In this document: piece after piece, positions 22,186-54,556 of the stretch | Numbering within the stretch: the stretch's first letter is position 1 | How the letters are laid out: each line of letters starts with the position of its first letter | Assembly (NCBI RefSeq): GCF_024502345.1 | Contig: NZ_JALDNN010000001.1 | Source: Escherichia coli | GTDB lineage: Bacteria > Pseudomonadota > Gammaproteobacteria > Enterobacterales > Enterobacteriaceae | Length of the DNA stretch: 64,000 nucleotides | Reading direction: 5' to 3' (one strand) | Notes under the pieces: model-generated | What the model was told of the DNA's origin: nothing | The model's input: the letters and a program-made list of their open reading frames with translations, nothing else | The model's database searches: none | Program-made: the position numbers and the translations under genes

Positions 22186-22199
22186 TTGATGTAAAACAA
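22186..22199. promoter_or_regulatory. FNR site II (upstream) of the grcA promoter
   Basis: TTGATgtaaAACAA, close to the FNR consensus TTGAT-N4-ATCAA; centred 53 bp upstream of site I, as expected for the two-site yfiD/grcA promoter. Confidence 0.6.
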
Positions 22200-22238: not shown

Positions 22239-22252
22239 TTGATTTAAATCAA
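22239..22252. promoter_or_regulatory. FNR site I of the grcA promoter
   Basis: TTGATttaaATCAA, a perfect match to the FNR/CRP-family consensus, about 110 bp upstream of the grcA start. Confidence 0.7.
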
Positions 22253-52975: not shown

Positions 52976-53000
52976 ATGGTCTTCCTTTTTTTGCATCTTA

Positions 53001-53024
53001 ATTGATGTATCTCAAATGCATCTT
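53001..53024. promoter_or_regulatory. NsrR operator (with overlapping FNR-like half-sites) in the hmp promoter
   Basis: AAGATGCATTTGAGATACATCAAT on the hmp strand: imperfect inverted repeat matching the NsrR consensus; TTGATgtatCTCAA also resembles an FNR site; 26 bp upstream of the hmp start. Confidence 0.65.
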
Positions 53025-53170
53025 ATAAAAAATAGCCCTGCAATGTAAATGGTTCTTTGGTGTTTTTCAGAAAGAATGTGATGAAGTGAAAAATTTGCAT
53101 CACAAACCTGAAAAGAAATCCGTTTCCGGTTGCAAGCTCTTTATTCTCCAAAGCCTTGCGTAGCCTGAAG

Positions 53171-53186
53171 GTAATCGTTTGCGTAA
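53171..53186. promoter_or_regulatory. Candidate PurR box upstream of glyA
   Basis: Reverse complement TTACGCAAACGATTAC matches the PurR consensus over ACGCAAACG but diverges in the second half. Confidence 0.35.
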
Positions 53187-53302
53187 ATTCCTTTGTCAAG
53201 ACCTGTTATCGCACAATGATTCGGTTATACTGTTCGCCGTTGTCCAACAGGACCGCCTATAAAGGCCAAAAATTTTATTGTTAGCTGAGTCAGGAGATGC
53301 GG

Positions 53303-54556
53303 ATGTTAAAGCGTGAAATGAACATTGCCGATTATGATGCCGAACTGTGGCAGGCTATGGAGCAGGAAAAAGTACGTCAGGAAGAGCACATCGAACTGAT
53401 CGCCTCCGAAAACTACACCAGCCCGCGCGTAATGCAGGCGCAGGGTTCTCAGCTGACCAACAAATATGCTGAAGGTTATCCGGGCAAACGCTACTACGGC
53501 GGTTGCGAGTATGTTGATATCGTTGAACAACTGGCGATCGATCGTGCGAAAGAACTGTTCGGCGCTGACTACGCTAACGTCCAGCCGCACTCCGGCTCCC
53601 AGGCTAACTTTGCGGTCTACACCGCGCTGCTGGAACCAGGTGATACCGTTCTGGGTATGAACCTGGCGCATGGCGGTCACCTGACTCACGGTTCTCCGGT
53701 TAACTTCTCCGGTAAACTGTACAACATCGTTCCTTACGGTATCGATGCTACCGGTCATATCGACTACGCCGATCTGGAAAAACAAGCCAAAGAACACAAG
53801 CCGAAAATGATTATCGGTGGTTTCTCTGCATATTCCGGCGTGGTTGACTGGGCGAAAATGCGTGAAATCGCTGACAGCATCGGTGCTTACCTGTTCGTTG
53901 ATATGGCGCACGTTGCGGGCCTGGTTGCTGCTGGCGTCTACCCGAACCCGGTTCCTCATGCTCACGTTGTTACTACCACCACTCACAAAACCCTGGCGGG
54001 TCCGCGCGGCGGCCTGATCCTGGCGAAAGGTGGTAGCGAAGAGCTGTACAAAAAACTGAACTCTGCCGTTTTCCCTGGTGGTCAGGGCGGTCCGTTGATG
54101 CACGTAATCGCCGGTAAAGCGGTTGCTCTGAAAGAAGCGATGGAGCCTGAGTTCAAAACTTACCAGCAGCAGGTCGCGAAAAACGCTAAAGCGATGGTAG
54201 AAGTGTTCCTCGAGCGCGGCTACAAAGTGGTTTCCGGCGGCACTGATAACCACCTGTTCCTGGTTGATCTGGTTGATAAAAACCTGACCGGTAAAGAAGC
54301 AGACGCCGCTCTGGGCCGTGCTAACATCACCGTCAACAAAAACAGCGTACCGAACGATCCGAAGAGCCCGTTTGTGACCTCCGGTATTCGCGTGGGTACT
54401 CCGGCGATTACGCGTCGCGGCTTCAAAGAAGCAGAAGCGAAAGAACTGGCTGGCTGGATGTGTGACGTGCTGGACAGCATCAATGATGAAGCCGTTATCG
54501 AGCGCATCAAAGGTAAAGTTCTCGACATCTGCGCACGTTTCCCGGTTTACGCATAA
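53303..54556 (+). CDS. glyA: Serine hydroxymethyltransferase
   Basis: ATG at 53303 (CAGGAG SD 6 nt upstream) gives the 417-aa [22 protein letters not shown]... protein with PLP-lysine motif TTTTHKTL. Confidence 0.97.

Follow-up and report, generated by a model that had tools for sequence, protein, structure and literature searches.

The hmp gene encodes the main aerobic NO-detoxifying enzyme of enterobacteria, which is important for surviving inside macrophages and the urinary tract. Its upstream region raises the question of which regulators act there and whether the signals of oxygen and NO meet at a single element. An initial annotation, made from the sequence of an E. coli DNA stretch of 64,000 nucleotides (hereafter the window), had proposed a composite NsrR/FNR operator between the divergent genes hmp and glyA. 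The two genes are located as follows:

51785 to 52975, minus strand: hmp (hmpA) coding sequence, flavohaemoglobin / NO dioxygenase of 396 amino acids, the regulated gene (ORF list; RefSeq annotation of identical DNA)
53303 to 54556, plus strand: glyA coding sequence, the divergent neighbour (ORF list; RefSeq annotation)

In the RefSeq annotation of identical DNA, hmpA starts at 52975 on the minus strand and glyA at 53303 on the plus strand, in agreement with the divergent arrangement initially proposed, and the flanks are occupied by glnB and a ROK-family gene. The in-frame ATGs at 52996 and 53297, which stand further upstream in the ORF list, are mechanical and differ from the annotated starts; with the latter, the site falls within a 327-bp divergent hmp-glyA intergenic region. 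Of 5426 complete E. coli genomes, 5425 contain a single copy of the segment 52900-53300 with an identity of at least 95%, annotated there as the start of hmpA, 'NO-inducible flavohemoprotein'. On the glnB side (51402-51740), an open reading frame at 49905-51341, upstream of glnB, encodes a sigma-54-type response regulator with receiver, AAA+, and HTH domains; together they presumably represent the glrR/yfhA-glnB arrangement of E. coli.

The plus strand at 52992-53024 reads TGCATCTTAATTGATGTATCTCAAATGCATCTT, and the following NsrR-related elements were recognized in it:

53002 to 53024, minus strand: NsrR operator, a 23-bp 11-1-11 inverted repeat, AAGATGCATTT-G-AGATACATCAA in the hmp sense (published hmp site; PWM; orthologues)
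53014 to 53024, minus strand: promoter-proximal NsrR half-site AAGATGCATTT, a perfect consensus 11-mer, the same as both ytfE half-sites (PMC5320621) and nearly invariant in Enterobacteriaceae
53002 to 53012, minus strand: promoter-distal NsrR half-site AGATACATCAA, degenerate, read from the sequence; G53011 and A53002 differ from other genera
53004 to 53022, no strand assigned: 19-bp core inverted repeat GATGTAT-CTCAA-ATGCATC, an exact match to gATGyAT-N5-ATrCATc (Rodionov 2005)

The 23 bp at 53002-53024, TTGATGTATCTCAAATGCATCTT, are letter-for-letter identical to the published 11-1-11 NsrR site of hmp, which is listed with a ChIP-seq peak in E. coli CFT073 (Mehta et al. 2015, Table 4; PMC5320621), the peak being modest in the same table (32 at hmp vs 247 at ytfE). 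The 19-bp NsrR consensus gATGyAT-N5-ATrCATc (Rodionov 2005; PMC1274295), scanned as GATGYAT-N5-ATRCATC, has one match in the 64-kb window, which is the hmp site itself with zero mismatches, at 0.05 matches expected. A symmetric NsrR matrix was built from the 25 other 11-1-11 sites of Mehta Table 4, with hmp left out. With this matrix, 53002-53024 ranks first among all 23-mers of the window (18.5 bits; the runner-up has 12.5), and the score of the hmp site was attained by four of 200 random 64-kb sequences generated with a first-order Markov model. The architecture of an NsrR operator, AAGATGCATTT-N-AAATGCATCTT with a 19-bp core, is thus present at hmp, and the initial assignment of the site as the NsrR operator expected at this promoter is borne out by the identity with Table 4 and by the consensus. 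At the homologous Salmonella hmp site, AAGATGCATTTGATATACATCAT, purified NsrR binds in EMSA in an NO-sensitive manner (PMC10783083). According to the literature, hmp is derepressed in nsrR mutants, NsrR being a strong repressor of this gene and FNR an additional one.

The inverted repeat described initially is GATGTATCTCAAATGCATC (53004-53022), whose arms are complementary in 7 of 9 positions (GATG/CATC, AT/AT, T/A). A repeat finder with a 6-nt seed did not report it, since its longest exact complementary seed has only 4 nt. Its distance from the hmp start codon, given as 26 bp, is correct for the full 23-bp site but not for the 19-bp repeat, which lies 28 nt from the ATG. Similarly, the span originally delimited, 52992-53024, does contain the operator, but it also takes in a second copy of the 9-mer TGCATCTTA that had gone unmentioned; the two copies, at 52992-53000 and 53017-53025, form a direct repeat.

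The position of the operator relative to the promoter is set by three further elements:

53020 to 53027, minus strand: predicted -10, TATAAG (53027 to 53022) or TAAGAT (53025 to 53020), from a sigma-70 promoter scan; TATAAGATG is invariant across genera
53044 to 53049, minus strand: predicted -35 hexamer TTTACA, from the same type of scan
52981 to 52987, minus strand: Shine-Dalgarno sequence AAGGAAG of hmp, read from the sequence

According to the promoter scan, the first bases of the NsrR operator overlap the predicted -10 of this NO-stress gene, as is characteristic of NsrR sites, and the start of hmp transcription, as placed from the predicted -10, probably falls at about 53013-53015. With this geometry, the operator would begin inside the -10 and cover the presumed start, which fits repression by occlusion. 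The -35/-10 spacer contains a well conserved block, GCAGGG (hmp sense, 53035-53040; about 1.0-1.8 bits/column), and the plus-strand heptamer TAGCCCT at 53034-53040 resembles the NarL/NarP heptamer (TACYYMT); hmp is among the enterobacterial genes with candidate NarP regulation (Rodionov 2005). Further upstream, about 113 nt from the hmp ATG, a strongly conserved block with the dyad GTGA...TCAC (53086-53105; TTGTGATGCAAATTTTTCAC in the hmp sense) is common to Enterobacteriaceae and may be one of the MetR sites known from the glyA-hmp region.

The second component proposed for the operator, an FNR-like site TTGAT-N4-CTCAA overlapping the inverted repeat, is indeed present:

53002 to 53015, no strand assigned: FNR site, TTGATgtatCTCAA on the plus strand and TTGAGatacATCAA in the hmp sense; 9 of 10 consensus positions, PatSer 14.39, PWM 17.0 bits

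The 14-mer TTGAGATACATCAA at glyA/hmp is among the FNR sites predicted in Table S6 of Myers et al. (2013; PMC3688515); its PatSer score of 14.39 corresponds to ln P -12.89, which passes the precision-recall threshold of ln P -10.75. A matrix built from the 63 ChIP-bound FNR sites of the same table (lowest training site, 11.9 bits) ranks the hmp site second in the window, after the yfiD/grcA site. Both matrix scans suggested at the outset therefore placed the hmp site at or next to the top of the window, first for NsrR and second for FNR. The bare FNR consensus is less discriminating, with seven matches at no more than one mismatch in the window vs 2.5 expected. Two other sites, TTGATGTAAAACAA (22186-22199) and the perfect consensus TTGATTTAAATCAA (22239-22252), take the first and third ranks between them in the FNR matrix scan of the window. 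They are the ChIP-positive yfiD(grcA)/ung sites of Table S6 (K-12 positions 2714632 and 2714579; Myers 2013), from which it also follows that the window runs opposite to K-12 numbering.

We put the probability that 53002-53024 is the characterized repressor operator of the E. coli hmp promoter, used by NsrR and FNR, at about 0.9. The most serious alternative is that NsrR is the only regulator of this operator, the FNR match being a by-product of half-site likeness (ATrCATCtt vs ATCAA), FNR being absent in vivo and the effect of fnr being indirect. Although the site scores well, ChIP-seq of anaerobic E. coli K-12 gave no FNR peak at hmp, and the site was classed as 'silent' and overlaps Fis enrichment (PMC3688515). 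Moreover, among 26 E. coli NsrR sites the usual in-register FNR match is 6/10, so part of the FNR resemblance is built into the generic NsrR motif. However, hmp alone of these 26 sites attains 9/10, and with 17.0 bits it outscores 75% of the ChIP-bound FNR sites of the training set. Functional data also argue for FNR: transcriptomics showed hmp to be repressed by FNR and flagged it as 'likely part of direct regulon', and Myers et al. treat hmp as a probably direct target, citing in vitro binding by Cruz-Ramos 2002 (PMC3688515). In Salmonella, whose site scores 16.5 bits, deletion of fnr raises hmpA-lacZ expression 216-fold under anaerobic conditions (PMC3212961).

The distribution of the two sites among relatives bears on the same alternative. 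When the GTDB species genomes were scanned with Hmp as the query protein, 80 Enterobacteriaceae loci were obtained, 78 of them with usable upstream DNA. The NsrR 23-mer was found in all 78 of these (18.4-30.9 bits), at 17-38 nt and mostly 25-27 nt from the ATG. FNR-grade sequence, on the other hand, is missing from most Enterobacteriaceae: the FNR matrix scores Escherichia at 17-20 bits and Citrobacter and S. Typhimurium at 14.3-16.5, but all other genera at no more than 10 bits, below the 11.9-bit minimum of ChIP-bound sites, and S. enterica subsp. arizonae at 4.4 bits. This parallels the observation that conservation of the hmp FNR site, unlike that of the NsrR site, is limited to E. coli and S. 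typhimurium (Rodionov et al. 2005), and it would suit an operator used by NsrR alone.

Against such an operator stands the nature of the substitutions. Three operator bases are specific to E. coli, namely the spacer G53013, G53011 at position 14, and A53002 at position 23, where the majority of other sequences have A, A, and T, respectively. Two of these three, G53013 and A53002, raise the FNR match, in that TTG and ATCAA of the FNR site are created by the spacer G and the terminal A, and the same A lowers the NsrR match. The perfect FNR consensus, TTGATatacATCAA, is found in a cryptic Escherichia clade (locus L002). Taken with the functional data, these points make an operator of NsrR alone unlikely, although not negligibly so.

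A second alternative explains the conservation by the core promoter (-10, discriminator, and start) and the 5' untranslated region, for instance by pairing with the small RNA SdsN, with no protein operator at all. The most invariant bases, TATAAGATGCAT, do take in the -10 hexamer, the distal half of the site is probably transcribed, and SdsN, an RpoS-dependent small RNA, targets and represses hmpA mRNA according to a review (PMC8139620). The column information of an alignment of 78 distinct upstream sequences, comprising the window and related loci, is as follows:

53044 to 53049, -35 hexamer: 2.0 bits/column
53014 to 53024, proximal NsrR half-site: 1.80 bits/column
53002 to 53024, whole NsrR operator: 1.62 bits/column (mean)
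52981 to 52987, Shine-Dalgarno sequence: 1.59 bits/column
56 columns upstream of the -35: 0.97 bits/column
52989 to 52999, extra 11-mer (described below): 0.6 bits/column

Thus the remaining 5' untranslated region, 52989-52999, is poorly conserved. In addition, the dyad-symmetric 23-mer of every genus scores 18-31 bits with an NsrR matrix of independent origin; published ChIP-seq and EMSA data place NsrR on this sequence; and no Rfam element was found. We regard this explanation as very improbable. Finally, a chance origin of the inverted repeat in AT-rich intergenic DNA, to which its short, imperfect arms (7/9) and its omission by the repeat finder might lend some color, can be rejected given one exact consensus match against 0.05 expected, the first rank of the site among matrix matches in 64 kb, and its conservation, equally far from the ATG, in 78 other genomes.

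An operator shared by NsrR and FNR suggests the following mechanism. A dimer of NsrR, an Rrf2-family protein with a [4Fe-4S] cluster, recognizes the 23-bp 11-1-11 repeat and, once bound, would keep RNA polymerase from starting hmp transcription, probably by occlusion; as the repeat starts inside the predicted -10 and crosses the presumed transcription start, NsrR would be well placed to block the polymerase. FNR, an oxygen sensor active only under anaerobic conditions, would use the downstream 14 bp of the repeat (TTGAG-ATAC-ATCAA), a near-consensus site, and add repression where oxygen is lacking. Counted from the end of the predicted -10, the center of this site (53008/53009) falls about 11-13 bp downstream, a position that suits repression and not activation. 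NO nitrosylates the Fe-S clusters of both regulators, so that DNA binding is lost and hmp is derepressed.

Because the NsrR site fully contains the FNR site, with the dyad centers 4.5 bp apart, binding of the two proteins is likely to be mutually exclusive, and their dimers would compete at hmp with no joint binding. Explicit wording that the NsrR and FNR sites of hmp overlap was not found in the literature searched, whereas the published coordinates and sequences imply the overlap. The suggestion that anaerobic and NO signals converge here corresponds to the standard view, in which hmp is controlled by two Fe-S repressors, NsrR and FNR, each of which loses its activity on exposure to reactive nitrogen species (PMC3212961, PMC2884951).

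One further NsrR-like sequence was detected closer to the start codon:

52989 to 52999, minus strand: extra single NsrR-like 11-mer AAGATGCAAAA, in direct orientation relative to the proximal half-site and 25 bp downstream of it, in the presumed 5' untranslated region; part of the two-copy direct repeat of TGCATCTTA

This 11-mer is found in Escherichia only, and its function is uncertain; in PMC5320621 it appears under the name hmp(19), its score being low (5.00). Pairing of SdsN with the hmpA 5' untranslated region could explain this Escherichia-specific sequence. A structured RNA element was also considered and rejected, as the Rfam scan of 52500-53800 gave only a chance match to mir-67 (E = 0.93). 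In an uncultured Buttiauxella metagenome-assembled genome, an NsrR-like half-site, AAGATGCATTAAAAGATGCATATTAAATGCATCAT, occurs directly upstream of the main hmp operator; this third half-site is a lineage-specific gain that is independent of the Escherichia one.

The E. coli NsrR site has the lowest score of 79 sequences (18.4 bits; median 26.5 bits), since the G at position 14 and the terminal A both reduce the NsrR score. Over the same 79 sequences, the NsrR score and the in-register FNR match are negatively correlated (Spearman -0.47, a raw value that ignores relatedness). One possible, although doubtful, reading is that the hmp operator of Escherichia has been remodeled, with NsrR strength traded for FNR input, the extra 11-mer compensating for the loss, and NsrR masking FNR. 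The Escherichia-only 11-mer may do so by attracting a further NsrR; should the two proteins compete for the bases that they share, NsrR occupancy would be a possible cause of the 'silent' FNR site in ChIP-seq. Even if true, this lineage trade-off would be of modest interest.

Within E. coli, the 75-mer at 52976-53050 is identical in 3645 and slightly different in 1773 of 5418 complete genomes. The 23-mer is kept in all four aligned E. coli sequences, the sole change being G to A at 53011, position 14 of the site, in the divergent strain NCTC10444 (TTGAAATACATCAA). The commonest variant of the 75-mer, accounting for about a third of the differing genomes, is a length change between A7 and A8 in the 5' untranslated region, outside the operator; the A7 run is at 52986-52992, between the extra 11-mer and the Shine-Dalgarno sequence, and A8 was seen in one variant inspected (CU42ET-1). 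Strain MS14384 (NZ_LR130562.1) carries a 29-bp tandem duplication of ATTTGAGATACATCAATTAAGATGCAAAA, equivalent to 52989-53017 and bounded by the direct repeat AAGATGCA. It doubles the FNR site and the distal NsrR half and adds extra NsrR half-sites; it could be either repeat-mediated or an assembly artefact.

The NsrR/FNR operator of hmp is already known, and the element analyzed here is this operator itself and not a relative of it. Earlier publications already cover the site, its two regulators, and the narrow conservation of the FNR part, so our analysis brings no new knowledge beyond modest quantitative additions, namely the negative correlation between NsrR and FNR matches, the weakness of the E. 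coli NsrR site among its orthologues, and the extra half-site restricted to Escherichia. The operator is a textbook example of a single promoter under the control of two Fe-S sensors, so its correct recognition is useful for annotation. The NsrR operator of the hmp promoter was reportedly described by Bodenmiller and Spiro in 2006 and by Partridge in 2009, and the FNR repression site of Phmp by Poole in 1996 and Cruz-Ramos in 2002; the latter site is said to be centered at +5.5, covering -2 to +11.

Compared with the known hmp promoter NsrR operator of E. coli and Salmonella, our element shows no difference, having the same locus, 23-bp sequence, 19-bp consensus, and placement by the hmp start. 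Likewise, the FNR repression site of Phmp is represented by the identical 14-mer at glyA/hmp, downstream of the -10 (Myers 2013, Table S6). The classical FNR site in the window, that of yfiD/grcA, is ChIP-positive, whereas the hmp FNR site has no ChIP-seq peak and is nested in the operator of another regulator. The ytfE operator, AAGATGCATTTAAAATGCATCTT, which has the best PatSer P-value of the NsrR sites in Table 4 (PMC5320621), shares with hmp the 11-1-11 architecture and the identical proximal 11-mer; it is nearly perfectly symmetric, however, and scores -5.5 bits for FNR in that register against 17.0 bits at hmp, where the distal half deviates at four positions and the spacer is G. At the hcp promoter of enterobacteria, too, the same two regulators integrate oxygen and NO (PMC1274295). 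There, an upstream FNR site serves for activation and a separate NsrR site lies downstream of it; at hmp, by contrast, the FNR site sits within the NsrR site, and FNR acts as a repressor like NsrR.
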